From contig CAVUZH010000013.1 in NCBI GenBank assembly GCA_963745835.1, forward strand, positions 640,001 to 704,000: a stretch of DNA of 64,000 nucleotides, written 5' to 3'. The DNA is from an uncultured delta proteobacterium (GTDB lineage: Bacteria; Desulfobacterota; Binatia; UBA9968). The position numbers and the translations under genes are program-made. The notes beneath the pieces were generated by a model that was given only the letters and a program-made list of their open reading frames with translations, made no database searches and had not been told where the DNA came from. Numbering within the stretch: the stretch's first letter is position 1; every line of letters begins with the position of its first letter. This document shows positions 26,704-47,304 of the stretch, one piece after another.

Positions 26704-27369
26704 ATGCACTGTGCAATTACAAGATCATCAATTTCAACCTGTTTTGAGTTGCCGCTAGGCGCATGGATGATAACGGCAGCGGCAGCGTTGTTGTCAACCG
26801 CTCTAGGGTGCGGCACCATTTCAGACGCACCTCATCGATCGATAGCGACGAGCGCAGTGTTGCCGGCTGAGACCCTGAGCGACAATCCTCCGGTGGACGA
26901 GCCACAGACCGACATTCCCCCTCTTGAGAGTTCATCTGCGCCGATTTTGCCGCGCTCTCCCGAAATGCAGGAAGCTTTGCCGCCGGCAACTCTTCCCAAT
27001 CCTGCGCCATCGACGATCATAGAGACCGGGCTAGCCTCTTGGTATGGAGCAAAACATCACGGCAAGCGGACGGCGAGCGGAGAAATTTTTGATCAGAAAA
27101 AATTCACCGCCGCGCATCGAACTCTTCCGTGGGGCAGCATCGTAAAGGTAACCAACCTCGACAATGGAAAATCGGTGGAAGTGCGGATAAACGATCGCGG
27201 GCCGTTTCCCAAAGGCCGGATCATCGATCTCTCGCGGGCCGCGGCAAGGGCTCTGGGCATGGTGGAATTGGGAGTTAGCCCGGTGCGAATGGAATTGCTT
27301 TCGCCGCGCGAAATCTCAAGTGATCTGGTGTTGCAAAATAGCCAATCGTCTTCGGGCAACAGACAGTAA
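26704..27369 (+). CDS. rlpA: Septal ring lytic transglycosylase RlpA-family lipoprotein
   Basis: GLASWYG...TASGE...TAAHRTLP...VRINDRGPF...IIDLSRAAA; lipobox LGC. Confidence 0.92.
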   Translation: MHCAITRSSISTCFELPLGAWMITAAAALLSTALGCGTISDAPHRSIATSAVLPAETLSDNPPVDEPQTDIPPLESSSAPILPRSPEMQEALPPATLPNPAPSTIIETGLASWYGAKHHGKRTASGEIFDQKKFTAAHRTLPWGSIVKVTNLDNGKSVEVRINDRGPFPKGRIIDLSRAAARALGMVELGVSPVRMELLSPREISSDLVLQNSQSSSGNRQ

Positions 27370-27673
27370 TTAGAACCCGGATCATTAACCGACTTTCCGA
27401 TCGTTCAGACGTCGCTAAGTCCAAGTTATCTACAGCGTAATCTTTCCCTCCGTTCACTGCTTCGTTGACCGCAGAAAACCCGCTCAAATTGGGTAAAGCA
27501 ATTGGACAGGCCGGCTGGAACCTCGTAACAAAGGTCTGAGCTGACCGGCCGCAGGTTGTGCGTGCTAATGAGCGATCTGGATAGTGATTAACAGCTAGAC
27601 TAGGTCCATTCGGTATCGGGGATCAGCCGACTATTCCAGTTAGTTAACAAGGTTTTCCGAAGTGGTGCCGAGT

Positions 27674-28663
27674 TTACGGAAGTCTAAAAAAGTCCCGGGC
27701 GTTTTTATGACCCACTTTCTCCCGCTCTTCGTTGGAAAAACAATCCGACTCGATAAGTCTTACTGCTTGGTCGAGATAAGCATCTTCAATGGGATGATCG
27801 CTGCCGAACATTATATGTTCTGCTGCAAGGGTCTCAATTGCGCAGTGCAGTTCCGGCTTTGACCAGCGTGGCGGCGCCGTATCAAAGAAGATGCGCTGCA
27901 AACGTGACTCTAGTGTTTGCCGCAGTCCCATGTCGTAATGGCGGCCCAGGATGCGTTGTTTGAGGACGCCGAAACTGCCACCTAGATGTGGATAGATAAA
28001 ACGGAGCTTGGGGAAGCGATCGAGCAGATCGCTCAGCAAAACCCGCAAAAACGAGACGGTCGTATTATAGGGTCGCCCGTAACACATGAGTAAGTTGTAG
28101 TCCGACAATGGCAGCCTGGCGCTCGGCGTACCCGACACGTACTCCAGGGGCTCGCATGCGGGATGTGTGATAATGGGCAGGTCGAGCTTACTGACAAGTT
28201 CGAAAAATGAGTTTAGGCCGGGATTGTCCAGCGACCACCCCTTACGGGACAGATGCACGATGCTGTAAACGCCCGCAACACCAGGGCCGCGGACCGTTCC
28301 AGCTCCTCCAAAGCGCCCTCTTCACCGATGGGCACGTGCGCTAGTGTAAGCAGCCGCTCCGGGAAACGTCGCCGCAGCTCGTACATGGCATCGTTAACCT
28401 CACGGCACATTTTCAAATCTAACCACTCGATCCAGTTTGCGACGCTCAACACCGCTTTGTCGATGTTGTAGCGGTCCAAATCAGCGATCAGCCGATCCCC
28501 GATGAGATCTTTTCATCATACAGAAACAATACGCTGTCACCGCTGGCGATTCCGACCGTGCCGGGGCGCAACTCGCGCACCGTCTGGCCGGCAGGACGAC
28601 TTTGTGCAGTTCCTTCATCTGATGCGGTGGAATCCAATGATGATGAACATCGATTATTCCCAT
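27674..28663 (-). pseudogene. Amidohydrolase_2 family protein split by frameshifts
   Basis: IIDVHHH (28481-28663), REVNDAM (28213-28479), PHLGG...GSDHP (27674-28258). Confidence 0.8.
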
Positions 28664-28935
28664 AGAGGTGAACCGCTCTTTGGCATCGAGAGTCGATGTG
28701 AAATGGATTTCCGGCAAGCTCACTTCACGTCGACGGAAGATAGATGGAGAGAGAACGTGATTTTCGTCTGGCAGGCTACAGTCCGATTAGTGCGCAACCG
28801 CTCAGCCTTGCCAACCGTTTTGCGACAGCGCGTACAGGTTACCTTCTGGATCCACGAGTTTAACTTCGTCCGTTTCACCCTCAGCCGCCGGCAGTGTCAA
28901 CCCGATCTGCTGAAAGCGCTATATCCGATCGCCTT

Positions 28936-29132
28936 CAACAGACAGTAATTAGACCCCGCATCTTTTACAGATCTTCAATCATTCAGGCATCGCTGAGTCC
29001 AAGTTAGCTATGGAGGCTTTCGCCTAATGGTTTTTCCCTCCGTTCACCGCTTCCTTGGACGAATACCCGCTCACTTCGGGAAAGCGATCGGACGGCCGGC
29101 CGGTCTTTCAAACAGTAACAAAAGATGTGATC
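28936..29132 (+). repeat. rlpA-tail repeat, copy B
   Basis: Aligns by eye to 27357-27546, from CAACAGACAGTAATTAGA to GTAACAAAAGATGTGATC. Confidence 0.85.
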
Positions 29133-29249
29133 GAGAAATTCTCGGCACGCAGCGCTTCTCGCATACGAGCCGTCTGCCTTTCAATGAATAAGTAGCTTGC
29201 GCTCTTTTCTTTTTCCGTTCGTTTGCTGTGTCTGCTCATTTCGCAGCGG

Positions 29250-29882
29250 TCAGTAAAGCTCGGTCTTCAGGCGCTCGGCATATTTCTCGTTATAACTTCT
29301 GGCGTAGGCAGCATCCTTGCCGTCGCGGGCGGCGGCGAAGTCGCCGTGGGTCGGGGCGCCGCTCGGCCGCTCCGTCGCCTCCCACAGCTTCGCCCGCACC
29401 AGAGCTTTAGGACAGTGATTGAAGGCTTCCTCGACAGCGACGACCACGACCACGCGCGGCGGCTTGCCGCCCACCTCGAATCGCTTCAGCAACTCCGGGT
29501 CCGTGCTGATCGTCGCACTGCCAGTCACGCGATAGGTTTCGTTCGATCCCGGGATCATGAAAATGATACCGACCTTCGGATTGACGAGCAGGTTCTTCAT
29601 CCCGTCGATGCGGTTGTTGCCTGGCCGGTCGGGGATCAGCAGTGTGCGGTCATCGAGCAACTGCACAAATCCCGGCGCATCGCCTTTGGGCGAACAATCG
29701 ATGCTGGTCCCGTTCGAGGTCCCGATCACCAGGAACGGCGATGCCGCGATGAAGGCGCGCCCGACCTCGGTGATGTGGTCGGTTTCCTTGGTGGCGACGT
29801 GGGGCAACGGCTTGGCATATATTTTCGCGAGATGGTCGAGTGAAGTAACGGTATAGGCATCGTTCCGGTCTATCGCATCCAT
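29250..29882 (-). CDS. Pyridoxamine 5'-phosphate oxidase-related FMN-binding protein
   Basis: DCSPKGD, PDRPGNNR, HCPKALVR. Confidence 0.9.
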   Translation of the reverse strand: MDAIDRNDAYTVTSLDHLAKIYAKPLPHVATKETDHITEVGRAFIAASPFLVIGTSNGTSIDCSPKGDAPGFVQLLDDRTLLIPDRPGNNRIDGMKNLLVNPKVGIIFMIPGSNETYRVTGSATISTDPELLKRFEVGGKPPRVVVVVAVEEAFNHCPKALVRAKLWEATERPSGAPTHGDFAAARDGKDAAYARSYNEKYAERLKTELY

Positions 29883-29895
29883 GTCATATTCCTCC

Positions 29896-30033
29896 TCGGG
29901 TCGGTGACGGTGGCAAAAGTCTTCGTTGGATTCTGCAATATCGATTGCTAACTGAGTATTGTCAACATTGCAATTTGCCGCATAGGCCGAACGGGGAAGC
30001 GGGTCGTCTCCCTAACGAACGGCGGCTTATTTC
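29896..30033. promoter_or_regulatory. Promoter region of the FMN-binding gene, duplicated at 31818-31957
   Basis: Minus-strand TTGACA-17-GATATT with near-palindrome GCAATATCGATTGC; ~138-bp diverged direct repeat. Confidence 0.7.
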
Positions 30034-30044
30034 AAACGAACGGT

Positions 30045-30395
30045 CGGGATCAGGTCTTTTACCTCTGACAGTCAGCCGCAGATCTGAGAGTTTATTTTCA
30101 GGATGTTCCGGCCGCCGGGCAGCGGAGATTCCGATTGCCTTCAATTTTCAAAAAGCAGCCTGCGATGATATGCCCTCTGAACTCCGGCGGCCGCCGTGGC
30201 TCGTCTTCTTTTTGCAGTCCCGTCAGCGACACTCCGTTCTTTTTGCACATTCCGCAACACGCTCGGCCATTCGGTTCTCCTTTACACATTTTGCGCATCG
30301 GCGTCTGTCGTCGTTGAACGATACGCCACCGTTCAATCCCTTTGATCATGACGTGATGCAGGTCCCGGGGTATCTATTCTCGCTTGCCGCGACAT
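30045..30395 (-). pseudogene. Y1/RAYT transposase N-terminal remnant
   Basis: MSRQARIDTPG/LHHVMIKGIER across a frameshift; GGGATCAGGTCTT end-like motif near 30046. Confidence 0.6.
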
Positions 30396-30757
30396 GTCAT
30401 GCGCACTCTGGGAGGTCGTCTCCTTATCGGGCTCCGTCAAGCTACCACTTCCCCTCAGATATTCTCTTGACAGGGGCTACCCGAGCCGAATAGATTTTGG
30501 CGGTCTCACAGCTCGATCCACCACTTACGGGGGGATACGAATTAGTCGCTCGAGCATTACCGGACCGTAATGCCCAGACGAGGCGATGGCCGTTAACATC
30601 CATCCAGTCGTCGGCGATCGCGTCTTGGTTCGCGGCGACCCGTTCGCCGAACTATCGACCATGTGCAAGGTTTGTTTGTTCTGGACCAGATTGGGTGAAT
30701 AATTCGGCACCGGTCAGACTGGAGTCTTGGTCTGCTGAGCCTCTGAGGTTACCTACC

Positions 30758-31717
30758 ATGCCTAAGTTCACGGAATCGCAAATCAAGGCGGCGATCTCTG
30801 CACGCGACAAGGAGACGCGTGCAGATTCGAAGCTCCGCAAGACGATGTTGGCTCGGATGCAGACGATGCAGCGCCAAGGAGAAAAAGCTCTCACTTCCTA
30901 TCTTAAGAAGACCGGGTTCGATTTCAAAGGCTACGACAGGATCAGTGCACAACAGCAGGCGGAGATGCACCGGCTCTTGAAGGAAGCGCAGAAAGCCGCG
31001 ATCAAACGGTCTTCCTCACGAAAAAAGGAGCTCGCGTACGGCGTTGAGAACTGGCGCAAGAACGTCGAACGGTTTCGCGACGCCACCCTCGTGTCCAAAT
31101 TCGTACCCGCCTTCGAGGTGGTGGATACTCCCTTCCTGATCTGGCCGACCAACAACCTGGAGCTTGAGGACTCGCATACCGAGCCGTGGAACAACACGGC
31201 AAAGGTTCGCGGTCTGTGGTCCGGCAGCACGGGAAGCGAAAACTTGCGGTTCATCTTCGTCTGGGAAAACCCGATCGACAAGTGGGCCGTCGTGAACGTC
31301 GAGTCGAATCTGGCTGTCAACGGCGCCTGTGATGCGTTCGCGGAAGGAGGATTTCTGGCAGGCAGCCTGAATAGCGTGTTTGTTCAAGCATCCCTGAACG
31401 TCTGGGAGTGGTGGAATAACCCACCGACCATGCTTTCGCCGCAGGCGACGCAAGCTCAAAGGGTTCTGGCCGTGGCGGCTAGCGGCGGAGGGCCTCTGAG
31501 TAATCTGGGCGGCGGCAGTGTTGATTCGAAGAGCGCAAGTGGAATCCATGATCTCAGGCGCACGTTGTTTTCGCTTCCCCCCAATGGTGTCGCGGTGTTC
31601 GAGGTTGCGTTGGAGTTTTTCTACGACAATACCGGCGGCGGCATGATCCAAGCGAACTTCGCAAGCGGTGACTTTGGGGTTAAGTGTCCTGCGGTGGTGA
31701 TTGCCGTTCTAAGTTAA
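30758..31717 (+). CDS. Hypothetical protein
   Basis: 319-aa ORF from ATG with GAGG upstream; helical basic N-terminus and beta-rich C-terminus. Confidence 0.75.
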   Translation: MPKFTESQIKAAISARDKETRADSKLRKTMLARMQTMQRQGEKALTSYLKKTGFDFKGYDRISAQQQAEMHRLLKEAQKAAIKRSSSRKKELAYGVENWRKNVERFRDATLVSKFVPAFEVVDTPFLIWPTNNLELEDSHTEPWNNTAKVRGLWSGSTGSENLRFIFVWENPIDKWAVVNVESNLAVNGACDAFAEGGFLAGSLNSVFVQASLNVWEWWNNPPTMLSPQATQAQRVLAVAASGGGPLSNLGGGSVDSKSASGIHDLRRTLFSLPPNGVAVFEVALEFFYDNTGGGMIQANFASGDFGVKCPAVVIAVLS

Positions 31718-32049
31718 CTGAAGACTCGCTCGTTCTCGCGTACCTCACGAAGTCGCAGCCCGCACCTGCGAGCTCTTCCGGGCTGTCCCGTCACGCCAAT
31801 GCCAACGTTCCGAGTTTTCGGGTCGGTGACGGTGGCAGTAGTCTTCGTTGAATTCTGTAATATCGATTGCTAACTGAGTCTTGTCAACATTGCAATTTGC
31901 GGCTTAGGCCGAATGAGGGAAGCGGGTCATCTCCCTAACGAACCGGCCGCTTATTTCGACCAATGAGTTTACTTCGGCGTAAAGTAGCTGCACTTTTTTA
32001 TTTCGTCCTATTTAGTCCCTCACACCGCGCTGCACACTACTCGACCGCG

Positions 32050-32538
32050 CTAATCAATGCTGACCCTTCGCCCAAAGAAAGTATCAGAAGCGATGGCCGG
32101 AGTATTCGAATCCAAGGGATCGTCATTGGGATTGAAAGCGCGCAACTCGAAGCTCCCTTCCATTTCGTCACACCTTTCAGCGAACCTCATGACGATATCG
32201 AGTCTGGAGATCTGCGACGGTGGAACACCACCGTTCACGGGAGTCTCTCTAAAGTTGAAGTCCAGGCCCCTCGCCTTCGCGTCCCGAGCGCCGCTTTTCT
32301 TCCACACACCTTGTATGTGGCTGAAGCCAAACGCCCTTTCTGCGGAGCTCGTAATCTGAAACCCACCGTCTTGTGACAGCGTCCAGAGGCTTTGAGTGCC
32401 ACTGCCTTCAACGACGAGATAAGTGCCGGGGAAACAGCCGCCCTGTGCTCCCGTATCGCGCGAGCTAGCGCTGGTCGAACTCAATAAGAAAGTCGCGATC
32501 GATAATACAAAGGCCAATATTATAAATCGGTATTTCAT
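32050..32538 (-). CDS. Secreted hypothetical protein (paralog of 39965-40444)
   Basis: Signal peptide; GGCFPGTYLVVEGSGTQSLWTLSQDG; AAGGAG RBS. Confidence 0.8.
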   Translation of the reverse strand: MKYRFIILAFVLSIATFLLSSTSASSRDTGAQGGCFPGTYLVVEGSGTQSLWTLSQDGGFQITSSAERAFGFSHIQGVWKKSGARDAKARGLDFNFRETPVNGGVPPSQISRLDIVMRFAERCDEMEGSFELRAFNPNDDPLDSNTPAIASDTFFGRRVSID

Positions 32539-32632
32539 GGTTCACTCCTTGCCGCGGTTATTCGTGCAGACTTCTCGGAACACGCGCTTCTAGCACAGGA
32601 TGCGCCCTCAAACAAATCCCGGACCGTGTTCG

Positions 32633-33033
32633 ACCAATCTCGACAATCAAAATCGGTGGAAGTGCGGATAGACGATCGCGGGCCGTTTACCAAAGCCCGG
32701 ATCATCGATCTCTCGCGGGCCGCGGCAAGCGCTCTGGGTATGTTGGAATCGGGAGTTAGCCCGGTGCGAATGGAATTGCTTTCGCCTGGCGAAATCTCAA
32801 GTGATCTGGTGTTGCAAAATAGCCAAGCACGTTCGGCAACAGACAGTGAGTAGATCTGATATTTACAGACCTTCCGATCGTTCAGGCATAGCCAAGTCCA
32901 AGTCATCTAAACCAGAGCCCCCGTAACCGCGTAGGTTTTTTTCTTCCGTTCACTGCTTCATTCGACACCGCAGAAATACCGGCATAATTTGGGAAAGCGA
33001 TCGGACAGCCGGCGGGCTAGCCCAACCTGACCC
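32633..33033 (+). repeat. rlpA-tail repeat, copy C (about 220 nt of rlpA coding sequence plus downstream DNA)
   Basis: KSVEVRIDDRGPFTKARIIDLSRAAA matches rlpA from 27151; ends CCTGACCC. Confidence 0.92.
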
Positions 33034-33136
33034 GTGTGGTTCGGGTATGCGCGGTTATGGATTTGACATCACCTAACGGCGATCAAGTGCGCCAGGGAAG
33101 AATGCCCGACCGTTGTTTCACTGATGCCGAAGTAAT

Positions 33137-33607
33137 TTAGAAAAGCCCACCGGTACGAATAGCAACTCCGGCCACGAGAAAACCGATAGAGATCAACGTG
33201 ACCAGGACGATATGGGATGCAAGCACATGCATGTTATCGCGGTTGATCCTGGGAATCACGCGAAATTTCGCGTTCAATGCCAAACCAAGGGTCGTCATCA
33301 AAAGCACTAATTTTATGAAAATGTAGATTGAGGCATTAGAATCAAGCCTAAACCAGGCGCTGCTCTCCGGCAGCCAACGATAAGCGAGTAAAAGTCCGGT
33401 AACCACTTGAAGACCGAGCGACGGTAGACCGATCCATTCAAATCCTTTCTCAAAATCGAGGATGATAGCCGGCTCGCGATGACGTAGTGCTCGGGGAAGA
33501 ATGGTCGCGGCCAGGACGAGGTGCCCACCGATCCAAACCGAGGCACCAATGAGATGGAGCGCGATTAGAATCCGGTACAAAATAGGCGATGCGTGGAAGT
33601 CAAACAT
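33137..33607 (-). CDS. CopD-like four-helix membrane protein
   Basis: LHLIGASVWIGG; four hydrophobic helices. Confidence 0.75.
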   Translation of the reverse strand: MFDFHASPILYRILIALHLIGASVWIGGHLVLAATILPRALRHREPAIILDFEKGFEWIGLPSLGLQVVTGLLLAYRWLPESSAWFRLDSNASIYIFIKLVLLMTTLGLALNAKFRVIPRINRDNMHVLASHIVLVTLISIGFLVAGVAIRTGGLF

Positions 33608-34006
33608 TGTGAAAGATGCTCAATGAAGTGCCGACGTTATCGAATCTAAGTCATGGCTGCAATAATTTAGTTGTCCCTTCCGATTCCTTCCTGCGCTACG
33701 ATCGCGCCCTGCGTTACCGATCGACGAAATCCGTCAGTGCGCTTACCTGCCATTCACGACCACAACGCGATTGGGGCTTGACCGCTGGCTGCTGCTGGGG
33801 CACGCCGTGGAAAAGCGGCCGCCTGTTTCGTAGCCTTCGGACCGCGGAAACAACTTGAGCGGCATTGATTCAAAGGACTAGAGAGGCTAAAACTTGGTTG
33901 GCATAATCAGTTCTCCTACAGAATGCTGTGACCAGATAGGCGACTAAGCGTCAGACTTAATTTCTATTTGCTATCAGCGACTTCATAGACAGAAAGAAGA
34001 AGCAAA

Positions 34007-34264
34007 ATGGATTTCGAAAAAGCAAAGCTGAATCCCGCAGCCATTTTTAAGAGCCCTCAAGAAGTGGTTTCAAGTCAAGAATTGTCGCGCCAGCAAAAAA
34101 TTGAAATCCTCCGGCGATGGGAACAGGACGCGACGTTGATGGAAGTCGCGGAGGAAGAAGGCATGCCCGGCCCGCAACCCAAACTGCTACAGCCGATCCG
34201 CGACGCTCTGCACGCCCTCGATTATTGGCCGGATACTGAGAACTCGGGCCCCAGCAAAGCCTGA
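34007..34264 (+). CDS. Conserved-looking small hypothetical protein
   Basis: KAKLNPAAIFKSPQEVV...KIEILRRWEQDA...EEGM. Confidence 0.7.
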   Translation: MDFEKAKLNPAAIFKSPQEVVSSQELSRQQKIEILRRWEQDATLMEVAEEEGMPGPQPKLLQPIRDALHALDYWPDTENSGPSKA

Positions 34265-34396
34265 GAAGCGAACCCCAAGAAAGTCGCGATGCTCAAAGCA
34301 ACTCCGTTCAACCTTACCCTCAATGCTCCCCTCAATGTCTCATTCAGGCGCGTCTGTTAAGTCAGGGTTAACCCAAATCCGCAGTTTTACTTCCGC

Positions 34397-34912: not shown

Positions 34913-34938
34913 TTCCGCAGAACCGTCAAACAGAAACT

Positions 34939-35268: not shown

Positions 35269-35338
35269 AAAATCCTTAGCCGGTTTTCTTCGACGGCCGT
35301 CGGGCATACAACTAGTAACAAAAGATTGACCCCTTTGG

Positions 35339-35997
35339 TTGGTTTCTGGCCGCAGTGGCCAAGAATACAATCAGCGCAAAGGATGCCACGGCGCATTCTG
35401 GGAAGACCGCTATCATGCCACGGCCATCGAGATTAACGAGCACCTTCAACGTTGTCTTGCTTACATCGATTTGAACATGGTTCGCGCCCGAGTCGTTACG
35501 CACCCCTGTAATTGGACACACAGCGGTTATCGAGAGATTCAGAAACCCCCGAAGCGGTACGGAATTATCGATCTACGGGAGTTAAGTTCGTTATGTGGAT
35601 TTGCTGGCGTCACCGATTTTCAACAAGCCCCCTGCAGAAGCGGTTGTCGCGGCATTCGCATTCGAGACTTACCGAATTCGGTTCTTGGAACGATTGGAAA
35701 TGAGCGTAGCGATTGAACGGCTGGAACGGTTTGAACCAACCGTTTTTGGTCCGAAGCGATCGCGGTCGGCAATTTGAATTTTGTTGAGAAGGTGCAGAAC
35801 CAAACTCGGATACAAAGCGGCGCATCGCGAAGTCATTGAAAGTGGCGGTACATATGAGCTCCCGGAGCAGACTGAAAGTTATGGGTCCAATTTTAGCGGT
35901 CAAAATGAGGCGCTAAGATCGGAAAACACTAGATTGTGGAACGAAAATTCTGAACTTACTGCAACTTAGCTTGGTCCTACCCCGAAGTTCTGACCCC
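35339..35997 (+). pseudogene. Y1/RAYT transposase C-terminal remnant
   Basis: GAFWEDRYHATAIE...YIDLNMVRA..V.HP..W.HSGY; interrupted by a TTGAAC repeat; ends TTCTGACCCC. Confidence 0.75.
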
Positions 35998-39964: not shown

Positions 39965-40444
39965 ATGACATCGCAGGTTCGTACGGCTTTGTTATCCTTT
40001 ATCCTAACACTGAGTGGCATCCTGACCGTGACCGCTTACGCCGACGCCGATGGCGGCTGCTTTCAGGGAACCTACTTTGTCAGAGAGAGCAGCGGCACGC
40101 AGAGCCTATGGACGTTTTCACAAGATGGTACTTATCAAAGCGCCAGCTCGGCGGAAGTGGGCCGGAGTTTTGGTCACATACAGGGCGCCTGGAAAAAGAC
40201 CGGGGCTCGAGAACTGCGCTCGACAGGTTTGGCTTTTACTTTTAGTGGCGGCAACGGCGACGTAGGCGTTCCGCCGCTTCGGACCGCTCGGGTTGATGCC
40301 GTTATGTCATTCACAAATAAATGTGAGGAGGTGGAAGGAACCTTTGAGGTTCGCTTCTTTGGCCCGGACGCCGATCCCGTCTCGGAGCCCGGCGAGTTCG
40401 TCTTTTCCGACACCTTTACCGGGCGCCGTGTCACGGTTAATTAG
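39965..40444 (+). CDS. Secreted hypothetical protein (paralog of 32050-32538)
   Basis: AGGAGG RBS; GGCFQGTYFVRESSGTQSLWTFSQDG. Confidence 0.8.
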   Translation: MTSQVRTALLSFILTLSGILTVTAYADADGGCFQGTYFVRESSGTQSLWTFSQDGTYQSASSAEVGRSFGHIQGAWKKTGARELRSTGLAFTFSGGNGDVGVPPLRTARVDAVMSFTNKCEEVEGTFEVRFFGPDADPVSEPGEFVFSDTFTGRRVTVN

Positions 40445-40503
40445 TTTCGCTGCAAGTGCTAAGTTCTACGGCTCGCCACTGCTGCTTCACAAAGGTGTTA
40501 GTG

Positions 40504-40989
40504 ATGCTCGCGAAGCTCCGATTCTCAACCATACAGACCGGTCTCGTACTCTTCTGGGCGATCTGGCTGACCCTCGTAACCCTCACGAACTTCGCTGATG
40601 CGATGAGGCAGCTGGACGTGCTCCCCAGTGATTTCAAGCTCGCCTCTTACAATTTTGATCTTGTGAAGAAGACGGTCGGCGCTCATGGGATACCGACGAG
40701 CGTCGCGGGCGTGCTTTTCGCCGGAGTTATTTTGTGGGAGTTGCTCGGCAGCATCCTGTTCTGGCGTGCATGGCGAGTTATGCGGCGTCACGGGAACGGC
40801 GCGGCTCCAGAAGTCGCGCAGGCGTTTGCAGTCAGTCTCGCTCTATGGGCTGCCTTTCTGATTGCCACGGAGGCGACGGTGAACTACGAGACCGCCGCGA
40901 CGCACAAGACAACCCTGATCGCGCAACTTGCAAGCCTCCTCGTGGTTCGCGCCAGCGCTTCGCCCACGAAGTCTGAACAAGCGGACTAG
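40504..40989 (+). CDS. Hypothetical membrane protein
   Basis: Three to four hydrophobic segments. Confidence 0.7.
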   Translation: MLAKLRFSTIQTGLVLFWAIWLTLVTLTNFADAMRQLDVLPSDFKLASYNFDLVKKTVGAHGIPTSVAGVLFAGVILWELLGSILFWRAWRVMRRHGNGAAPEVAQAFAVSLALWAAFLIATEATVNYETAATHKTTLIAQLASLLVVRASASPTKSEQAD

Positions 40990-41045
40990 CTGACTTCAGA
41001 GGAGCGTGTGACTTTCCGACTACGCCCTTCTCTGAGGGTCGTAAC

Positions 41046-41779
41046 AGGGGACAGGCTACTTTTTTTTCTACTTCCTCATCTCGCTTAGAGCGGGTCGCCC
41101 CCGTGGACGCATCGTACTCTCAAGTCCAAATAGACCTGCAATCGTCGTCTGCCAGTCTGGTTCTCCAAAAGGTCTTTGACGATTCACTGACTGACGAATA
41201 GAAGCCAATTGGCTCGCTGATAACGGTTCGTCCACATGCGCCAGCCAGTCTGTCTCGACTTCCACAGGACAGGGATCGGCCAGCTCGTTCCGACAGCAAC
41301 TTGACCAAGGCCAATCATCTATCGACGCTGCCAAGCCTGATCTGATCGATTCTGCAACACGTAGCGCAGGACCATTAGCAAATGTTCGTCGCGCTGCACT
41401 GGAAAACTTTTAAACCGGCCCTGCCAAACATGCCCGCTGCTGCCGTAGTGCTTGTGATAACGCCGTACGTGACTGGTCAAGAGCCATTGCATGAATCGGC
41501 TCAAAGACTGGTGATGCGAAGCTTCAATCAGAAAGTGAAAGTGATTCGGCATCAGAGAGAAAGCAAACATCTTAACTGGGTGCCGCGCTTTTGCTAGCGC
41601 GAGGATGGAAAGAAAGGCTTGGTAATCTTGAGCTTTATGAAAGATAGTTGCGCGACCGTTCCCTCGGTTGATCACATGATAAACAAAACCAGCCTGTTGC
41701 GCACGCGGGATTCTCGGCATGGCAGGGCTTTATCATATAGGCGAACGTGATCACAAACGATGAAAGTAGCCTGTCCCCT
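41046..41779 (-). mobile_element. TIR-flanked HUH/Y1 tyrosine transposase element, copy 1 (frameshifted)
   Basis: Perfect 17-bp TIR AGGGGACAGGCTACTTT / AAAGTAGCCTGTCCCCT; YHVINRG, MPNHFH (HUH), WQGRFKS, RYVLQN. Confidence 0.93.
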
Positions 41780-41857
41780 TTAATCCCAGTGGAAGTGATG
41801 GAACCGGGCGCGCGGCTTTGTTTTCCTTCGGACGGGCCATCGTGCATCTTAACGGGC

Positions 41858-42868
41858 TTATTCCCGTTTCTCCCACCGTGCGATCAAGCCCAGCAAATCG
41901 CAGACGCGATTGGAGTATCCCCATTCATTGTCGTACCAACTGAGACACTTTAGATATCTACCGCCCGTAACGCTGGTAAATGCCGGGTCGAAAATAGAGG
42001 AGTGCGAATTCCCTATGACGTCGGATGATACGACGGGTGTTTCCATGAGTTGCAAAATGCCTTTCATCCGTTTCGACTCCGCCGCGGATTTTATCGCGCC
42101 ATGAACGTCCTCGGCACTAACGCGTTTCTGGAGCTCGACGAACAAGTCGACCACGGAGCCATCGGGCACCGGTACCCGCGCGGCGATTCCGTCCAGCCGT
42201 CCTTTCAATTCAGGCAAGACCTCGCCCACCGCCTTGGCCGCTCCGGTGGATGTCGGTATAATATTTTCCGCCGCGGCGCGGCTCCGCCGCCAATCCGAGT
42301 GCGGCACGTCGGCGAGGCGCTGATCGTTGGTGTAGGCGTGCACGGTATTGATGATTCCTTCCACGATACCGAAAGAATCGTGGAGCACCTTGGCCAGCGG
42401 CGCAAGACAATTGGTGGTGCAGCTCGCGTTAGAAATCATCCTGTGCTCGGGCTTGAGCCCGTCATCGTTGACGCCGATTACGACGGTATAATCGATCTCG
42501 TCCTTCGCCGGAACAGTCAGCACCACTCGCTTGGCTCCCGCATCCAGATGCTTGGCAAGTTGTTCCCTGCTAGTGAATATTCCCGTCGATTCGATGACGA
42601 CGTCGATGTCGATCTCGCGCCAGGGCAGTTTGAGCGGCTCCTTTTCACGAAGCATGCGCGTCCGACCGTGCGATGTCACCAGTTCATTGCCTTCGAGCCG
42701 CAGGGCGCCCTCAAAACGACCCATCACGGTGTCATAGTTGAGCAAGTATCGCAGCGCGTCGTGGTCGAAAAGGTCGTTGATCGCAACCAGTTCGGCGTCC
42801 GCCCGCTTATCGAGAATACGAAACACAGAACGGCCGATTCGACCGAATCCATTAATGGCAACTCTCAT
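41858..42868 (-). CDS. gap: Type I glyceraldehyde-3-phosphate dehydrogenase
   Basis: INGFGRIGR; SNASCTTNCL; WYDNEWGYSNR. Confidence 0.95.
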   Translation of the reverse strand: MRVAINGFGRIGRSVFRILDKRADAELVAINDLFDHDALRYLLNYDTVMGRFEGALRLEGNELVTSHGRTRMLREKEPLKLPWREIDIDVVIESTGIFTSREQLAKHLDAGAKRVVLTVPAKDEIDYTVVIGVNDDGLKPEHRMISNASCTTNCLAPLAKVLHDSFGIVEGIINTVHAYTNDQRLADVPHSDWRRSRAAAENIIPTSTGAAKAVGEVLPELKGRLDGIAARVPVPDGSVVDLFVELQKRVSAEDVHGAIKSAAESKRMKGILQLMETPVVSSDVIGNSHSSIFDPAFTSVTGGRYLKCLSWYDNEWGYSNRVCDLLGLIARWEKRE

Positions 42869-43884
42869 CGCCCACCTCCGATGGCATCGAGCCTGCCATA
42901 GTGCCGGACCACTTCGAGCACGCGGCACGCATGCCCCAGGCTCTCATACCAGGCCAGCACTTTGATTATTCTTTTTCCTGCTTTAATGGTGGCGAGCGAA
43001 TCGAAGAGCAAGGATTGCCGGCAACCGATGACATCCGAAGAAACAATCGGATCATCGGTCACGCCGATCAACGTCGGATGATCGGCAGCGGCGGCGCGCA
43101 TAGCTCCGTTCACTTGCTCGGCCGTGACGGTGCCAGCCTGCATGACGCAGTTAACATCGAGCAATGATCCGCGTTGGACCGGCACGTTAAGGGCGTAACC
43201 GCTCAACTTTCCCTCAAACTTGGGCAGAACAAGCTCCACCCATCGCGCGGACTCATTGTTGTTGGGGATGATATTCTCCGCCGCGGACCGGCTGCGCCGG
43301 AAATCTTTGTGTGCATAATTCTGCAGCGACTGATCGCTACTATAGGCGTGGACCGTCGTCATCGATGCGCAGTCGACTCCTAAGGCCTGATCCAGAGATT
43401 GCAATAAAAGCGCAAATGCATTGGTCGTCGCGGAACCGGCCGAAATCATTTTGTCCGCGGCGGCGGCGCTCCCTTCATTGATTCCCGGTACTACGATACG
43501 GTCGATTGATTCCGCCGGCAGCGACGCCAGAATGACCCGCGGGGCACCGGCGCGCAGATGGGCCTCCATGTCCCGACGACTCCGATATCTGCCCGTGGCA
43601 TCAACGACACAGTGGACGTTCAGAACATCCCATGGAACCTCGTCCGGCCGGGCAAGCTGGAGCATTCTTGTGCGGAACTTCTCGTTGATCAGGTAATTGT
43701 CCTGGAGCTCGCAGGGCGCCTCGTCCACGCCGTCGCTATTGAGCAGGTACTGAATGATTTCCGGTTTGCCGATATCGGCCACCGCGACGATTTCGATATC
43801 ATCTATTTCCCGCGCAAGGTGATACAGGTGCCGCCCAATTTGGCCCAATCCCATAATGCCGATTCGGATTTTACCATTACGCAT
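42865..43884 (-). CDS. GAPDH-like protein lacking the catalytic cysteine
   Basis: Full-length GAPDH alignment by eye, but SAGSATTNAF replaces SNASCTTNCL and WYESLGH replaces WYDNEWGY. Confidence 0.88.
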   Translation of the reverse strand: MRNGKIRIGIMGLGQIGRHLYHLAREIDDIEIVAVADIGKPEIIQYLLNSDGVDEAPCELQDNYLINEKFRTRMLQLARPDEVPWDVLNVHCVVDATGRYRSRRDMEAHLRAGAPRVILASLPAESIDRIVVPGINEGSAAAADKMISAGSATTNAFALLLQSLDQALGVDCASMTTVHAYSSDQSLQNYAHKDFRRSRSAAENIIPNNNESARWVELVLPKFEGKLSGYALNVPVQRGSLLDVNCVMQAGTVTAEQVNGAMRAAAADHPTLIGVTDDPIVSSDVIGCRQSLLFDSLATIKAGKRIIKVLAWYESLGHACRVLEVVRHYGRLDAIGGGR

Positions 43885-44021
43885 TTGGCCGCCTCCGTTT
43901 CCGCAAAATTAAGCGCTCGAAGTTGGCGTTTATCCATAGCCGAGAACTCTAACAACCGATCAACCAAAAGAAAATGCTTTTCTGAGGAAATCGTCAAACT
44001 GAACTGGAGGTGAAAAGGGAC

Positions 44022-44370
44022 AGGGGACAGGCTACTTTTTATCTACTTCCTCATTTCGCTTAGAGCGGGTCGGCCCCGTGGACGCATCGTACTCTCAAGT
44101 CCAAATAGACCTGCAATCGTCGTCTGCCAGTCTGGTTCTCCAAAAGGTCTTTGACGATTCACTGACTGACGAATTGAAGCCAATTTGATCGCTGATAACG
44201 GTTCGTCCATATGCGCCAGCCAGTCTGTCTCGACTTCCACAGGGCAGGGATCGGCCAGCTCGTTCCGACAGCAACTTGACCAAGGCCAATCATCTATCGA
44301 CGCTGCCAAGTCTGATCCGACTAGATTCTGCAACACATAGCGCAGGACCATGAGCAAATGTTCGTCGCGC
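44022..44370 (-). mobile_element. TIR-Y1 element, copy 2 (3' half only)
   Basis: Left TIR intact; homology stops at ...TTCGTCGCGC. Confidence 0.92.
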
Positions 44371-44440
44371 CTTTCAGCACGTTGCTAGACTTGGCCCTAA
44401 TGGTTCGAACGATTTCTCTTGTTTAGAAAATCCGGGTTAG

Positions 44441-44757
44441 CGATCTACCGCAGCCGCGGCAAGGGCTCTGGGCATGCTGCAATCGGGAGTAAGCCCGGTG
44501 CGAATGGAATTGCTTTCGGCTGCCGAACGTTGAGTGACCTGGTGTTGCACGATAGCCAATGGTTCGGGCAACAGACAGTAATTAGAACCGCCGATCTTTA
44601 CAGATCTTCGATCATTCAGGGATCGCTAAGTCCAAGTATCTACAGAGGCCCTCGTAACCGCGTGGGTTTTGCCTCCGTCACTCTTTCCTTGGACGAATAC
44701 CCGCTCAATCGGGAAAGCGATCGGACGCCCGTCGGTCCTGCAAAAAAGATCTGACCC
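44441..44757 (+). repeat. rlpA-tail repeat, copy D (about 145 nt of rlpA plus downstream DNA)
   Basis: GCCGCGGCAAGGGCTCTGGGCATG...GCCCGGTGCGAATGGAATTGCTTTCG; ends AAAAGATCTGACCC. Confidence 0.9.
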
Positions 44758-44831
44758 TATGGTATTTCTCACCGCATACCAATGGGCGAACTGGTGTCCA
44801 GTGGGGAGAAATTTGCCGCATCGAGGGCTTA

Positions 44832-45872
44832 TTACTTGGGCAACAGAATTGTTTTCAATCTTGCCACTAGTTCAGGTTGTAAATCAAAAATGCCGGAGAC
44901 TAATTTTTCAACCTCTTCCCCCGCGGAAGGGTCTACGGCAAGGTTAGATTTCTTAGCCTCCGCTAGAAATTCCGGATCGCGCATCGTCTTCATGAACGCT
45001 TCCCTCATGGTGGTTGTCCGATCGGCTGGAGTCCCGGGCGGAAAAGCGTACAGGCGTGTGATCGAACTGGTGGTTTCGATACCCACTTCGATCAGTTTTC
45101 TTGCTTCGTCCGTTTTAGCAAAGTCGTATGCCAAGGGCACATTGGGCAGATCCGGTAATGGCTGTTTCGTCACCTGCAAAAGAACCCTCACGTCGCCGCT
45201 TCTTAGCGCGCCTGTCCAAGTGGGCTTAATAGACTCCCATTGCCAACAACCCCCTGCCAACTCACCGGATTCAGCGCCTAACCGAATCTCGGCAGTCCCG
45301 GGGTACCCCGTCACTACCTGCATGGGTAGTCCCAAGGCTTCTTTGAGAATAAACGCTGAGTTTCCGGGCGCAGTGCCTGCTATGCCGCCTAATTTGACCG
45401 GCGTCTTTGAAGTCAACCATTTTTTCATGTCCGTAATACCGCTCGCCGTTGTTAAGGCGCATACAATATGATCTTTCCCGGGCACACCGAGCCATTGAAA
45501 TTCTTTGGCCTTAAAGGTAATGCCTTCTCTTCCCAGGAGTTGCCCTAAGACCAGATCTCCTATGAAGTTGCCGATGGTGAGGCCATCCGGTTTAGCAACA
45601 TCATAAACGTGCTTGGCAGCAATCAGCGTTCCCGCACCGGGCATGTTCTGTACGATGACACTGGGGTTGCCTGGAACGTGCTTTCCCAAATGTCGCGCAA
45701 TAACTCGCGAGTAGGTGTCGAATCCTCCGCCCGCTGAGGCGCCTACCACGATCCTTATGGTTGCCCCTTTGTAAAATGGCTCCTGAGAGTGGAGCCGCGC
45801 AGCCCCAAAAATGGTAACGCAGAAAGCGGCCATTGCTCCTAACGCAATGCCAAAACACTTTCGAATTGCCAT
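44832..45872 (-). CDS. Tripartite tricarboxylate transporter substrate-binding protein (TctC/Bug)
   Basis: GGGFDTYSR, NMPGAG, KPDGLT, PPGTP. Confidence 0.92.
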   Translation of the reverse strand: MAIRKCFGIALGAMAAFCVTIFGAARLHSQEPFYKGATIRIVVGASAGGGFDTYSRVIARHLGKHVPGNPSVIVQNMPGAGTLIAAKHVYDVAKPDGLTIGNFIGDLVLGQLLGREGITFKAKEFQWLGVPGKDHIVCALTTASGITDMKKWLTSKTPVKLGGIAGTAPGNSAFILKEALGLPMQVVTGYPGTAEIRLGAESGELAGGCWQWESIKPTWTGALRSGDVRVLLQVTKQPLPDLPNVPLAYDFAKTDEARKLIEVGIETTSSITRLYAFPPGTPADRTTTMREAFMKTMRDPEFLAEAKKSNLAVDPSAGEEVEKLVSGIFDLQPELVARLKTILLPK

Positions 45873-45891
45873 AAGAACGGTTCTCCTTGCG

Positions 45892-46605
45892 TTAAACCGC
45901 TTCCATTGCTAGCGCCAGCCCAAGCCGAAAAACTCGATAGAATTCCATCGATTCACGCGCTGCTTTCAGGATGCGTTCTTCATTTCCCTTGCCAAACTCT
46001 GTCAGAACCGGGAGAAACATTTCGCCGTGCTCCTCATCCGCCTCTGCGTGGGCCGCGAGATTGGGAATCTGTTCCCATTTAAGACCCATATCTTCAGCCC
46101 ATCGGATGCCTTCTCGCCGCGAGACTCCTCCGCCGGAATCCAGAAATAAACGATCATCGTTGGCCCACTCCGTAGCCATAAGAGCAGCGAGGCCCTCCAG
46201 CCAATGATGCTCGCGCGTTATCCAACCCCACGCATAGAGTGTCGCGCGCGTTGAAGGCAACGGTTCAACGTTGAGCGCTTGATCTGGGCTCAAACCCAGA
46301 GTTCGAGCTTGACGAACGATAAGCTCCATATGTCCGAAATCGGAGTATTTGTCCTGCACGATTTCGTCGTACTCGTGCGCGAGGATCTTCTGCTTCACTG
46401 ACATTTCCGGACAATTACCCGAGACAAACGCCCAACAATCACGACGATGCTTGATAAATACCCCGAGTTGAAGCAAAGAAATCTTCGCGCGTTCGGGAGT
46501 AAATTTTACTGAAAAGAAACGGTCGAATTCAGGGGTTTTCACTCCCTCTACAACAACCCGTCCAAATGCTTGTTTCCACTCATGTTCGGTCATGAAGCCT
46601 CCCAT
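45892..46605 (-). CDS. Heme-oxygenase-like (TenA/PqqC/CADD) iron redox enzyme
   Basis: HEYDE...GH and HAEADEEH putative metal ligands. Confidence 0.75.
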   Translation of the reverse strand: MGGFMTEHEWKQAFGRVVVEGVKTPEFDRFFSVKFTPERAKISLLQLGVFIKHRRDCWAFVSGNCPEMSVKQKILAHEYDEIVQDKYSDFGHMELIVRQARTLGLSPDQALNVEPLPSTRATLYAWGWITREHHWLEGLAALMATEWANDDRLFLDSGGGVSRREGIRWAEDMGLKWEQIPNLAAHAEADEEHGEMFLPVLTEFGKGNEERILKAARESMEFYRVFRLGLALAMEAV

Positions 46606-46656
46606 TCAAAAAGCCCATCCTTAATACGACTCTGTGCGCTGAGGTCTTTCCGGATA

Positions 46657-46995
46657 TCAGACCGGCCACCCATGTTCAGAGATGTCCACCCGATTGCCTT
46701 CAGGGTCCTCTATCCAGCTCTCCGCAATGGCCCCGTAGACGTTTGAGTTTGCGGTAGTACCGACGAACTCCTCGACGGCTTTGACGCTCGTCACTACAAA
46801 ACCAAAGTGATGGATGCCCCAGGGAAGGTTCGGCGCATTGATCAGGGCAACGTCAACGAAGCCATCGGACAGATAAATCGTTCCATTCGGACCACGTTCC
46901 TTTTCTTCCAGCTTGAATACACCTTTGTAATACTCGGCAGCTTTTTCGCGATCTTCAACGTTGATAGCGATATGGCGAATGCGTGGTTTACTCAT
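46657..46995 (-). CDS. VOC/glyoxalase family protein
   Basis: IRHIAI...YLSDG...GIHHFGF...DPEGNRVDIS. Confidence 0.88.
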   Translation of the reverse strand: MSKPRIRHIAINVEDREKAAEYYKGVFKLEEKERGPNGTIYLSDGFVDVALINAPNLPWGIHHFGFVVTSVKAVEEFVGTTANSNVYGAIAESWIEDPEGNRVDISEHGWPV

Positions 46996-47224
46996 AAGAA
47001 ATCCCCCCCTTTGAAAGACCCTTTTTCGCGTTGGACGCACCTTTCAATGGGACCTGTAACCCCTCTCACAATCGATGTCAAATAACTCGGCGGATAAAAC
47101 TAAACAGAAAAGTAACGGGTCAGAACAAGCAGGAAAAAGAGTCACTCATGAACAGCTTGTCAAATTCTCTTTAGATGCAACTCTCGAGCTCGGGCGAAGT
47201 TGTTACATTCAATCGGACGCCGAG

Positions 47225-47304
47225 TTCTTCCGTTCACTGCTTCGTTGGACCCCGCAGAATACCCGCTCAAATTGGGGAAGTGCTCGGACGCCGGGATTAC
47301 AACT
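47225..47304 (+). repeat. rlpA-downstream repeat, copy E (short)
   Basis: TCCGTTCACTGCTTCGTTG..CCGCAGAA.ACCCGCTCAAATTGGG matches 27449-27493. Confidence 0.85.

Follow-up and report, generated by a model that had tools for sequence, protein, structure and literature searches.

We studied a 64,000-nucleotide stretch of DNA (the window, to which the positions below refer) on a 919-kb contig of a 7.28-Mb genome (G000). The window contains an rlpA block (26505..27545, + strand), which consists of the promoter region, an intact rlpA gene (26704-27369, +) and a non-coding tail 3' of the gene (tail A, 27370-about 27545, +). The rlpA product (221 aa) belongs to the DPBB_1 / RlpA family (Pfam DPBB_1, 6e-27; TIGR00413 rlpA, 2e-45). 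The 3' end of rlpA and about 180 nt of the DNA following it occur again downstream five or six times, always in direct orientation, and the copies are separated by modules of 1.4-9 kb that carry ordinary metabolic genes.

Remnants of rlpA downstream of the intact gene

A blastn search of the whole genome with rlpA and its tail (26704-27620) as the query gave eight matches, three of which were coding sequence only and represent DPBB paralogues on C13:463749, C16 and C24. It found four further copies, which all lie on the + strand within 28921-47279; a profile search with nhmmer returned the same five copies as blastn and nothing additional. The copies of the rlpA tail are thus confined to one 21-kb stretch of the genome. 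Copy B (28921..29130, +) consists of the last 28 nt of the rlpA coding sequence and tail B, and matches A at 28921-29103 (72.5% over 193 nt, E 1e-20). In copy C (32633..33045, +), about 220 nt of rlpA coding sequence, bearing two deletions of 1 nt, is followed by tail C, the right end of which is degenerate (32633-33016, 82.4% over 391 nt, E 4e-103). Copy D (44432..44760, +) has about 145 nt of coding sequence with indels and a tail with a complete right end (44432-44726, 76.6% over 308 nt, E 4e-52). Copy E (47225..47301, +) is the second half of the tail only, cut on the right by a Y1 element (blastn, 47229-47279, 88% over 51 nt, E 3e-10; nhmmer, E 7e-11). Copy F (35289..35345, +), the right end of the tail only (about 55 nt), comprises a hairpin and a 13-mer. 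It is below BLAST length, and its alignment with A is without significance; its support is the 13-mer, AGTAACAAAAGAT, of which the genome has exactly two occurrences, one in B and one in F, both on the same strand and both preceded by a GC hairpin. Copy F lies at the right terminus of the HSP20 module; in G006:C9, the HSP20 module has this terminus too, with another right neighbour.

All five remnants are 3' pieces of rlpA, and the 5' 646 nt of the block gave no match elsewhere in the window by blastn or nhmmer. In rlpA coordinates, the left ends lie at 27151 (C), about 27216 (D), 27338 (B) and 27449 (E), in or just to the right of 27015-27314, the sole stretch with 90% or more conservation between rlpA alleles. 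These results bear out the preliminary description, which named 27151-27546 as the source stretch, in that the tail recurs in direct orientation with varying left ends (F being recognized by the 13-mer) and in that the copies are found at this locus alone, with no scatter over the genome. Two details did not hold: the 13 nt of coding sequence assigned to copy B become 28 nt when B is set against its own allele type, that of the metagenome contig L143, and the 20-mer quoted as a consensus of the right ends is present in no copy.

The left boundary of the block (26505-26512) is common to G000, the relatives G005 and G006, and L143, and the upstream neighbour is different in each. The promoter, the gene and the tail of about 180 nt form a conserved island amid strain-variable gene modules in this lineage.

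Shared right ends and Y1 elements

At the right, A, B, D and F line up with one another and with the tails of G006, G005 and L143 on a GC hairpin and the GTAACAAAAGAT(C)TGA that comes after it. GTAACAAAAGAT itself is found twice (in B and F), and AAAAGATCTGACCC once (in D). Four to six tails (A, B, D and F clearly, C in degenerate form only, and that of G006:C9) end within about 10-20 nt of one point, and their right neighbours are all different. The convergence of the right ends described earlier thus holds for A, B, D and F; C is degenerate there, and E stops at 47301, where a Y1 element starts. Two tails in relatives lack the shared right end: the intact tail of G005 stops at about 27426, and a remnant in G006 (t2) diverges after about 27445. 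A boundary of similar precision is seen in module M2 (29131..32632), which contains a gene for a PPOX-type flavoprotein (29250-29882, -; TIGR04025, 1e-68), hypothetical genes and a 1.8-kb insert. The right boundary of M2 (32619-32632) is common to three genomes with three different neighbours, and was reused within about 3 nt.

Y1 element 1 (41035..41787, -) is about 750 bp long with inverted ends containing GGGACAGGCTAC. Its gene (Y1_Tnp, 3e-17) has, in translation, an intact HUH motif (HFH) and a catalytic-type Tyr in an RYVLQN-type motif; the protein scores under both NCBIfam cut-offs. Sister copies lie at 47302-48060, 50686-51430 and 55302-56041, and a truncated copy (44020-44370; 95.7% identical to element 1 over 352 nt) together with a 60-nt spacer X occupies 44020..44431 (-). 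The five copies are 94-97% alike, all lie at 41-56 kb in the window, and none is found elsewhere in the genome; likewise, all seven genome occurrences of the 12-mer from the Y1 ends are in ends of Y1 elements. Copies D and E adjoin Y1 elements, as had been noted before: E abuts a full copy, and D follows the truncated copy plus the 60 nt on its left. Spacer X and the start of D are homologous to L143 628-703. Copy F abuts a 5'-truncated RAYT-like gene (35346..35716, +; NF047646, 2e-9, profile positions 93-146 only), and an X1 contig has a different sequence to the left of 35346. Three of the six tails (D, E and F) therefore touch Y1-family sequence.

The A/B event and proposed serial displacement

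Copy B and the adjoining PNPOx gene are 97.6% identical over 907 nt to L143, in which this DNA is continuous with an intact rlpA; the match takes in PNPOx, tail B and the 15 nt that precede the stop-codon block. In G006, the end of rlpA runs into a B-type tail and PNPOx as in L143 (89%). An X5 contig joins 27371 to 28957. In a tree of the copies, B and the intact L143 allele grouped with 97/97 support, and A, C and D formed an unresolved star together with the intact alleles of G005 and G006, the tips being 0.11-0.18 changes per site long. These comparisons show that copy B is a displaced resident rlpA end and not a copy of A.

The rlpA block of G000 is 85% identical to that of L143 and only 67-83% identical in the 5' half, and the whole gene is therefore another allele; L143 and G006 are 83-98% alike in this half. 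Because the whole gene is divergent, we rejected an origin of the G000 gene by fusion of the resident 5' part to an arm of an element. Module M1 (27546..28920, -) lies between tail A and copy B and consists of an amidohydrolase pseudogene in three frames (27674-28723) and its upstream region; the Amidohydro_2 match covers 27674-28258 only, with adjoining ORFs at 28213-28479 and 28481-28723. M1 was absent from all 7 genus genomes and all 89 family genomes (E<=1e-8, four candidates scored per genome), and a donor arrangement for A plus M1 was not found among them. The amidase and NMT1 genes upstream of rlpA (23298-26511) are absent at this place in G005 and G006, which, together with the absence of M1 from relatives, fits one foreign segment of 5.6 kb. 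We regard it as established that allele A and M1 are foreign, and that M1 came in with rlpA allele A and its own tail.

Our preferred reading, to which we give somewhat better than an even chance, is that serial displacement at a hypervariable locus left the nested copies as scars. A displacement model is in the literature for T6SS effector-immunity arrays and for Rhs orphans, and that work proposes homology-facilitated illegitimate recombination for the orphan 3' modules of T6SS effector-immunity, Rhs and CDI systems (PMC5361080). In repeated events, a segment from a diverged relative would enter with its own rlpA end, its tail and the donor's downstream DNA. On its left side, the incoming DNA would recombine homologously in or upstream of rlpA, and on its right side it would be joined, by an illegitimate or homeologous event, inside the 3' part of the resident rlpA. 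The resident gene would lose its 5' part, and the 3' remnant, its tail and the downstream genes would be shifted rightwards. The left end of a remnant would be the position of the join, so left ends vary, and the right end would be the limit of homology between the rlpA loci of different lineages, so the right end is shared. A homologous crossover with a join close by would be expected in the conserved stretch 27015-27314, near the left ends. We infer that the route was similar to homology-facilitated illegitimate recombination, and copies C, D, E and F would have had the same origin as B. The 1.8-kb insert in M2 (30034-31822) has direct repeats of about 155 nt at both sides (29896-29996 / 31818-31918, 91%) and is missing from G005, G006 and one X5 contig; it is unrelated to rlpA, and we count this duplication, which is of the same style, in favor of displacement.

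As in the T6SS/Rhs/CDI arrays, the anchor is conserved and incoming DNA brings a new 3' part, and the old 3' end and the downstream genes are moved back in the same orientation, leaving strings of remnants with no integrase. Unlike in those arrays, the anchor here is a housekeeping cell-wall gene, what recurs is a conserved gene end with a non-coding tail in place of a variable toxin tip, the cargo consists of ordinary metabolic genes, most of them on the opposite strand, with no toxin/immunity pairs, and the A/B event replaced the whole gene and not the 3' part alone.

Direct comparative support for displacement comes from the A/B event only. In the genomes and contigs searched, no intact rlpA leads into a tail of the C or D type and the module belonging to it. 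Relatives have remnants of this sort: G006 has its own (t2), and L143 shares the D-type junction with G000; they are therefore natural and old. The D-type remnant of L143 lies 2.6 kb upstream of rlpA, which simple rightward displacement does not predict. Displacement also does not account for the sharp shared right boundary; the precision of the right ends and of the M2 boundary is not predicted by random illegitimate joins and hints at a site-specific step in the history of the locus. The contact of D, E and F with Y1-family sequence counts against displacement as well.

The preliminary description is partly confirmed in its observation and partly supported in its interpretation. As it had suggested, the array is anchored at the end of rlpA, and every copy records an insertion. 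The copies were not re-copied from the resident gene: B was once the end of an intact allele that relatives still have, and the distances among A, C and D are as large as those to intact alleles in other species, their star-like tree therefore indicating that C and D are not recent copies of A.

Alternative explanations

Site-specific elements targeting the 3' end of rlpA might each have brought a replacement gene end and displaced the older one, with their integrases since lost or acting in trans. The layout is the classic one of tandem tRNA/tmRNA islands, for which the Islander work describes a regenerated target and displaced 3' fragments (PMC4383910), and of tycheposon arrays with scattered partial tRNAs (bioRxiv 10.1101/2020.12.28.424599). 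There too, direct 3' fragments of one target mark successive arrivals, with the newest beside the intact gene, and the fragments may differ in length and share the gene-end side. The sharp right ends of tails and modules agree with such accretion, as does a 17-mer at the stop codon, CAACAGACAGTAATTAG, which A, B and D share without mismatch and which is absent from all other sites. However, the target here is protein-coding, and neither an integrase nor a remnant of one is present: the window has no tyrosine integrase (the nearest of 13 genome-wide matches lies about 51 kb past the window end and carries a stop), the sole serine recombinase is on C24, and no recombinase besides Y1 was found among the 78 ORFs of at least 80 aa in 24-52 kb. 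In B, the 15 nt that precede the 17-mer are of the resident (L143) type, and G000 rlpA is not L143-like in its 5' half, so a crossover at a 17-mer core fails to explain A/B; this identity pattern around the candidate core misfits site-specific crossover. The short cargo modules of metabolic genes also speak against accretion, which we consider rather unlikely.

Integron cassette arrays, a comparison drawn in PMC5361080, are similar in that new units come in close to a fixed point and move the older ones away from it, and in their short modules with a recurring separator. Unlike in integrons, IntI and attI are absent here, and the recurring sequence holds pieces of rlpA coding sequence and has no attC-like conserved hairpin.

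The tail right end might instead be recognized by a Y1 (RAYT/IS200-like) or IS91-like enzyme, with one-ended or read-through events moving variable lengths of the rlpA end and cargo. One-ended rolling-circle transposition of IS91, ISCR and Helitron elements leaves copies with one fixed and one variable end, as here, and the preliminary description had proposed HUH capture of this type. REP/RAYT and IS200/IS605 systems have a Y1 HUH protein and inverted flanking sequences, and the neighboring 750-bp elements likewise encode a Y1 HUH protein between GTAG-containing inverted sequences. The only recombinase genes of the locus are of this Y1 type, three tails touch Y1-family sequence, and several population variants have junctions at Y1 ends (34966 to 41048, 35270 to 41761, and 34442 to 44022). 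The right end of the tail reads TTAC and then a hairpin on the minus strand, which we take to be reminiscent of an IS200/IS605 left end. However, no IS91/ISCR/Helitron-type (Y2 HUH) gene occurs among the 78 ORFs; a genome-wide PF04986 search was empty, and its control was likewise silent. The fixed end does not lie beside an element in four of the six copies, A, B, C and D abutting ordinary genes or a pseudogene. The right end had been called TIR-type, and 20 alignments of Y1 ends with tail ends showed no significant likeness (lowest shuffle p, 0.017), which does not support the name, and no link between the Y1 elements and the tail ends could be shown; unlike REPs, the Y1 end sequence is locus-bound and not dispersed. 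The copies sit at one locus, and at least one, B, is a displaced original. HUH capture is improbable on this evidence.

The tail could also be a functional unit (a terminator, a 3'-UTR RNA or a protein-binding site) that was kept or spread because each module needs it. Its conservation is blocky and not uniform, most genes to the right of the tails converge on the tail, and a small hairpin (CCCG...CGGG) is kept in all five aligned tails. However, a search of the tail against Rfam gave no match, no tail contains a terminator-like site, and the tail is undetectable outside G000, G005, G006 and L143. The consensus fold is weak (-5.9 kcal/mol, covariation term +1.5), with compensatory change in 2 of 20 pairs. 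Function alone does not explain the attached pieces of rlpA coding sequence, and we give this explanation very little weight.

Least probable of all is an assembly artefact in which strain variants of the hypervariable locus were strung into one MAG contig: G000 shows 9.3% contamination and exceeds its genus relatives in size, the depth of M1 is far below that of B-PNPOx in four metagenomes, and no metagenome contig (short contigs were compared) was shown to bridge 28920/28921, but the copies are only 73-82% alike and so are not confusable in assembly, their left ends are nested and not identical, the independent assemblies of G006 and L143 have like remnants, and the 919-kb contig passes through all five closely similar Y1 copies.

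Copies of the rlpA end

The rlpA gene (26704-27369, forward strand) encodes a protein of 221 amino acid residues with a DPBB_1 domain and a match to the RlpA family model. A repeat search, a whole-genome blastn search and a profile search concordantly found that a unit comprising up to the last 220 nt of rlpA and about 180 nt downstream of the gene (the tail) recurs in direct orientation. We designate the intact 3' end with its tail (27370 to about 27545) as copy A and the downstream remnants as copies B to F. In the whole-genome blastn search, copy B (28921-29103) was 72.5% identical to A (E = 1e-20), copy C (32633-33016) 82.4% (E = 4e-103), copy D (44432-44726) 76.6% (E = 4e-52), and copy E (47229-47279) 88% over 51 nt (E = 3e-10), all in direct orientation. 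Copy F (about 35289-35345), on the same strand as B, shares with B a 13-mer that occurs exactly nowhere else in the genome and that follows a GC hairpin in both copies. The remaining three genomic matches covered only the DPBB coding part of paralogues. The series is real and locally unique: in both the blastn and the profile search, all copies were confined to 26.7-47.3 kb of the window. As they all lie there, the copies are not a dispersed MITE, and the right-end 13-mer is found in B and F only; the genome-wide BLAST search proposed in the preliminary description thus located them at one locus and not scattered.

All five remnants are 3' pieces of the 1,035-nt rlpA block, and blastn and the profile search detected no 5' piece of the block elsewhere in the window. 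The left ends of the remnants correspond to rlpA positions 27151, about 27216, 27338, and 27449, in or just to the right of the sole stretch that is well conserved between rlpA alleles. At the right end, the alignment of A, B, D, F, and three tails from relatives converges on a hairpin followed by GTAACAAAAGAT(C)TGA; the right end of C is degenerate, and E ends where a Y1 element (an element of about 750 bp with a Y1 HUH gene) starts. The convergence of right ends described earlier is thus confirmed for A, B, D, and F, and the 20-mer quoted for that end proved to be a composite present in no copy. A 17-mer is exactly conserved in A, B, and D. Divergence, which the preliminary description suggested comparing with position, does not track it: B, the copy nearest to A, is 73% identical to A, C 82%, and D 77%.

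Two minor features lie beside the copies. Within 47200-47301, a piece of the tail hairpin region, TCGGACGCCG, recurs 62 nt upstream, just to the left of E, and may represent a small internal duplication. On the left side of 28921, about 55 nt resemble rlpA at roughly 65%, which could reflect an older remnant or chance.

Origin of copy B

In G006, a relative of the same genus, an intact rlpA leads directly into a B-type tail and the gene for a PPOX flavoprotein (PNPOx), with 89% identity over 1118 nt; in the window, this gene belongs to the module at 29131-32632 (M2). A scan of metagenome contigs with one tail pattern yielded a contig (L143) with the same order, in which the B-type tail and the PPOX gene are 97.6% identical to the window over 907 nt and the match starts exactly at 28921. 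In the 5' half of rlpA, the source assembly (G000) and L143 are 67-83% identical, and L143 and G006 83-98%; in the DPBB core, G000 and L143 are 93-100% identical. In the phylogenetic tree, B grouped with the intact L143 allele (support 97/97), and A, C, and D, together with the intact alleles of G006 and of a second relative, G005, formed a star that was unresolved and whose tips measured 0.11-0.18 changes per site; A, C, and D thereby reach the depth seen among alleles from different species. The amidohydrolase pseudogene module between A and B (27546-28920; M1) was absent from all 7 genus and all 89 family genomes. The genes for an amidase and an NMT1-type binding protein just upstream of rlpA (23298-26511) are present there in the source assembly only, and not at that place in G005 and G006. 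A contig from the metagenome X5 joins 27371 to 28957, that is, the rlpA end to tail B without tail A or M1. Judged from this comparative evidence (G006, L143, the tree, the absence of M1, the upstream genes, and the X5 contig), B was once the end of the resident rlpA.

It was separated from its 5' part by the arrival of a foreign segment of about 5.6 kb, which brought an entire rlpA of its own together with tail A and M1. That the segment was foreign and brought its own anchor copy is indicated by the identity to L143, only 85% for the rlpA allele of A versus 97.6% for the adjoining stretch from B to PNPOx, and by the absence of M1 from relatives. Across 20-56 kb, GC content is flat (0.48-0.58) and gives no hint of foreign DNA by composition. 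A crossover at the 17-mer that is exact in A, B, and D does not readily explain the event: on its left side in B, 15 nt match the resident type, which the 5' half of rlpA as it now stands does not.

The tail was detectable only in G000, G005, G006, and L143; four unpublished genomes (G012, G018, G051, and G072) enter the tallies only, and no claim is based on them. In G005, the tail is split: its left half follows rlpA on G005:C251 (L003), and its right half precedes the PPOX gene on G005:C110 (L134). The left half is joined there to DNA that in the source assembly is C13:615450-616016. The amidohydrolase gene (27674-28723), in the most recently arrived segment, is split over three reading frames and is a pseudogene.

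Proposed serial displacement and other explanations

The best reading, in our view somewhat probable, is that the whole series consists of displaced gene ends that record serial replacement at a hypervariable locus; what was found for B would then extend to C, D, E, and F. Such an extension is favoured by the exclusively 3' nature of the five remnants and by the position of their left ends at the conserved stretch. A sequential-displacement model, with homology-facilitated illegitimate recombination (HFIR) as the suggested route, has been proposed for Vibrio T6SS effector-immunity arrays and Rhs orphans (PMC5361080), and the process envisaged for the rlpA series matches it. The relatives also carry remnants: G006 has one of its own (t2), and a D-type junction, in which 60 nt of spacer (X) adjoin rlpA from about 27222, is common to G000 and L143 and is therefore old. 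The repeats of about 155 nt (91%) that flank a 1.8-kb insert in M2 are a second duplication of the same style.

None of the 89 family genomes yielded a C-type or D-type arrangement with an intact rlpA. The family-wide query with the C tail and the CopD-like gene detected the gene in four other genomes (79-81%), in none of them with the tail; that with the D tail and the TctC-type gene matched only the large TctC paralogue family in 90/90 genomes. A 16-mer tail pattern gave at least 119 unrelated chance matches from many phyla among genome contigs. Differences among A, C, D, and the orthologues are flat over the three codon positions, and as this is also the case between intact orthologues, the pattern cannot tell if C and D evolved as working genes.

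Displacement leaves the sharpness of several boundaries unexplained. The right ends of four to six tails fall within 10-20 nt of a single position, and the neighbour that follows differs from tail to tail; three genomes, each with a different neighbour there, reuse the right end of M2 to within about 3 nt; and the HSP20 module has its end at one and the same nucleotide in G000 and on G006:C9. The left boundary of the rlpA block (26505-26512) is likewise sharp, with four different upstream neighbours in G000, G005, G006, and L143. Two tails in the relatives lack the common right end, and the D-type remnant of L143 lies upstream, not downstream, of its rlpA. The sharp and reused module ends suggest that some site-specific step has acted at this locus, and three of the tails adjoin Y1-family DNA.

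Site-specific accretion at the rlpA 3' end, as at tRNA genes, would fit the geometry of a regenerated target followed by displaced 3' fragments in direct orientation, and the 17-mer exact in A, B, and D would be a possible core. However, the identity pattern of A and B around the 17-mer fits poorly, and the window contains neither a tyrosine recombinase (PF00589; 13 matches genome-wide, none in the window) nor a serine recombinase (PF00239; matches on C24 only). We therefore regard such accretion as unlikely.

Units of the IS91/ISCR/Helitron type contain a Y2 HUH Rep or transposase gene, and the fixed end of each captured copy would abut the element. One-ended capture of this type was the mechanism put forward in the preliminary description, and we found HUH capture, also by a Y1 enzyme, unsupported. 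No Y2 HUH gene is among the 78 ORFs (at least 80 aa) of 24-52 kb (a genome-wide search with PF04986 gave no match, and the control genomes were likewise silent). Only E and F directly touch Y1-family sequence, whereas the fixed ends of A, B, C, and D adjoin ordinary genes or a pseudogene. There is no single master sequence, as B groups with the L143 allele (97/97) and A, C, and D form a deep star. The tail ends showed no significant likeness to the Y1 ends (20 tests against shuffles, minimum p = 0.017), including an AAAG...TG.CCCCTTT resemblance noticed by eye, and no tail-like target was shared by the left flanks of the four Y1 copies found by pattern search. Capture of this kind is quite improbable.

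A long shot, to which we give still less credence, is that the hairpin with the 13-mer and the sharp module ends (such as 32632 and 35345) are the joints of an integrase-free cassette system, in which the RAYT-like Y1 HUH enzymes confined to this locus would act in trans, excising modules and inserting them where single-stranded DNA is structured. If true, this would be an integron-like array on HUH chemistry, anchored behind a housekeeping gene; the unexplained precision of the module ends and the confinement of the Y1 elements to the locus are where a new mechanism could still hide. An integron comprises IntI, attI, and attC hairpins between cassettes. The rlpA array differs in lacking an integrase and attC hairpins, its tails having no conserved long hairpin, and an integron was rejected.

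A role of the tail as a functional RNA or terminator has no support, as Rfam gave no match, the tails contain no terminator-like site, and the test for covarying structure suggested earlier gave a weak alifold consensus. We regard misassembly as unlikely, since the copies share just 73-82% identity and independent assemblies carry similar remnants. The source assembly, of which the window is C13:640001-704000, has 7.28 Mb in 25 contigs, 97% completeness, and 9.3% contamination; the seven genus relatives have 3.9-5.5 Mb, and more than one strain may be present in G000.

Should serial displacement be the correct reading, the array preserves a legible record of successive gene transfers into one locus of an uncultured soil bacterium, in which each remnant dates one arrival. 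Beyond toxin loci and tRNA islands, the sequential-displacement pattern would then also cover a common cell-wall gene with metabolic cargo, and such stacks could arise without an integrase. Judged by title, none of the papers in our literature search (rlpA with genomic island and integration) describes rlpA as an insertion anchor.

Gene modules, Y1 elements, and population variants

Small modules separate the copies. Their genes are ordinary, lie mostly on the minus strand, and encode the amidohydrolase (M1, pseudogene), the PPOX-type flavoprotein, a CopD-like protein, HSP20, a hybrid histidine kinase, two GAPDHs, a TctC-type binding protein, a haem-oxygenase-like protein, and a glyoxalase. 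The right neighbour of A is the amidohydrolase pseudogene, that of B the PPOX flavoprotein gene, that of C the CopD-like gene, and that of D the TctC-type gene. The 1.8-kb insert (29896-31975 with its flanks) has the direct repeats, derived from a promoter region, on both sides and is not present in G005, G006, or one X5 contig. It holds ORFs of 182 and 406 aa of no known family; for the latter, Pfam, NCBIfam, PDB sequences, and the named Atlas clusters gave no family.

The sole recombinase genes of the window are the Y1 (IS200/RAYT-like) genes, each in a 750-bp element with inverted ends. Five copies of the element, one of them truncated, lie in one orientation between 41035 and 56041 and nowhere else in the genome; they alternate with gene modules of 2-4 kb, and G005 and G006 also carry copies in the same region. 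REP/RAYT systems combine a Y1 HUH protein with many dispersed REP copies. The Y1 protein of the window has the HUH and Tyr motifs in common with them, both kept in at least two copies, but it scored 56.9 bits against a cut-off of 80, and the 12-mer at the element ends occurs seven times, always at this locus and within the Y1 elements themselves. A 5'-truncated RAYT-like gene (35346-35716), of which only the C-terminal half remains, starts exactly at the end of the HSP20 module and copy F; a contig from the metagenome X1 has other sequence to the left of it.

Parts of the window occur in four metagenomes of soil or rhizosphere, each from another study, and show alternative joints, several of them at Y1 ends (34966 to 41048, 35270 to 41761, and 34442 to 44022); the locus is therefore structurally variable in nature. 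This comparison used contigs, not reads, at 90% likeness, and some may be from related species; the short public contigs did not confirm the junctions specific to G000. Some of the metagenomes gave no cover over parts of the window (e.g., 44.7-46.7 kb in X1), to which we attach no weight.

In L143, spacer X and a 27-nt rlpA fragment (628-712 of the contig) lie 2.6 kb upstream of the intact rlpA, and a DUF433/DUF5615 (PIN-like) gene pair between the two (2159-2829) is probably a toxin-antitoxin module. Between two Y1 copies of the window lies the module with the two GAPDH genes (41788-44019), with counterparts at G006:C15:29725-32223 and G005:C354:3237-5792. It is 97-98% identical across the three species, compared with about 90-92% for the flanking core DNA, and has the look of a unit that was exchanged recently, similar to a composite transposon.
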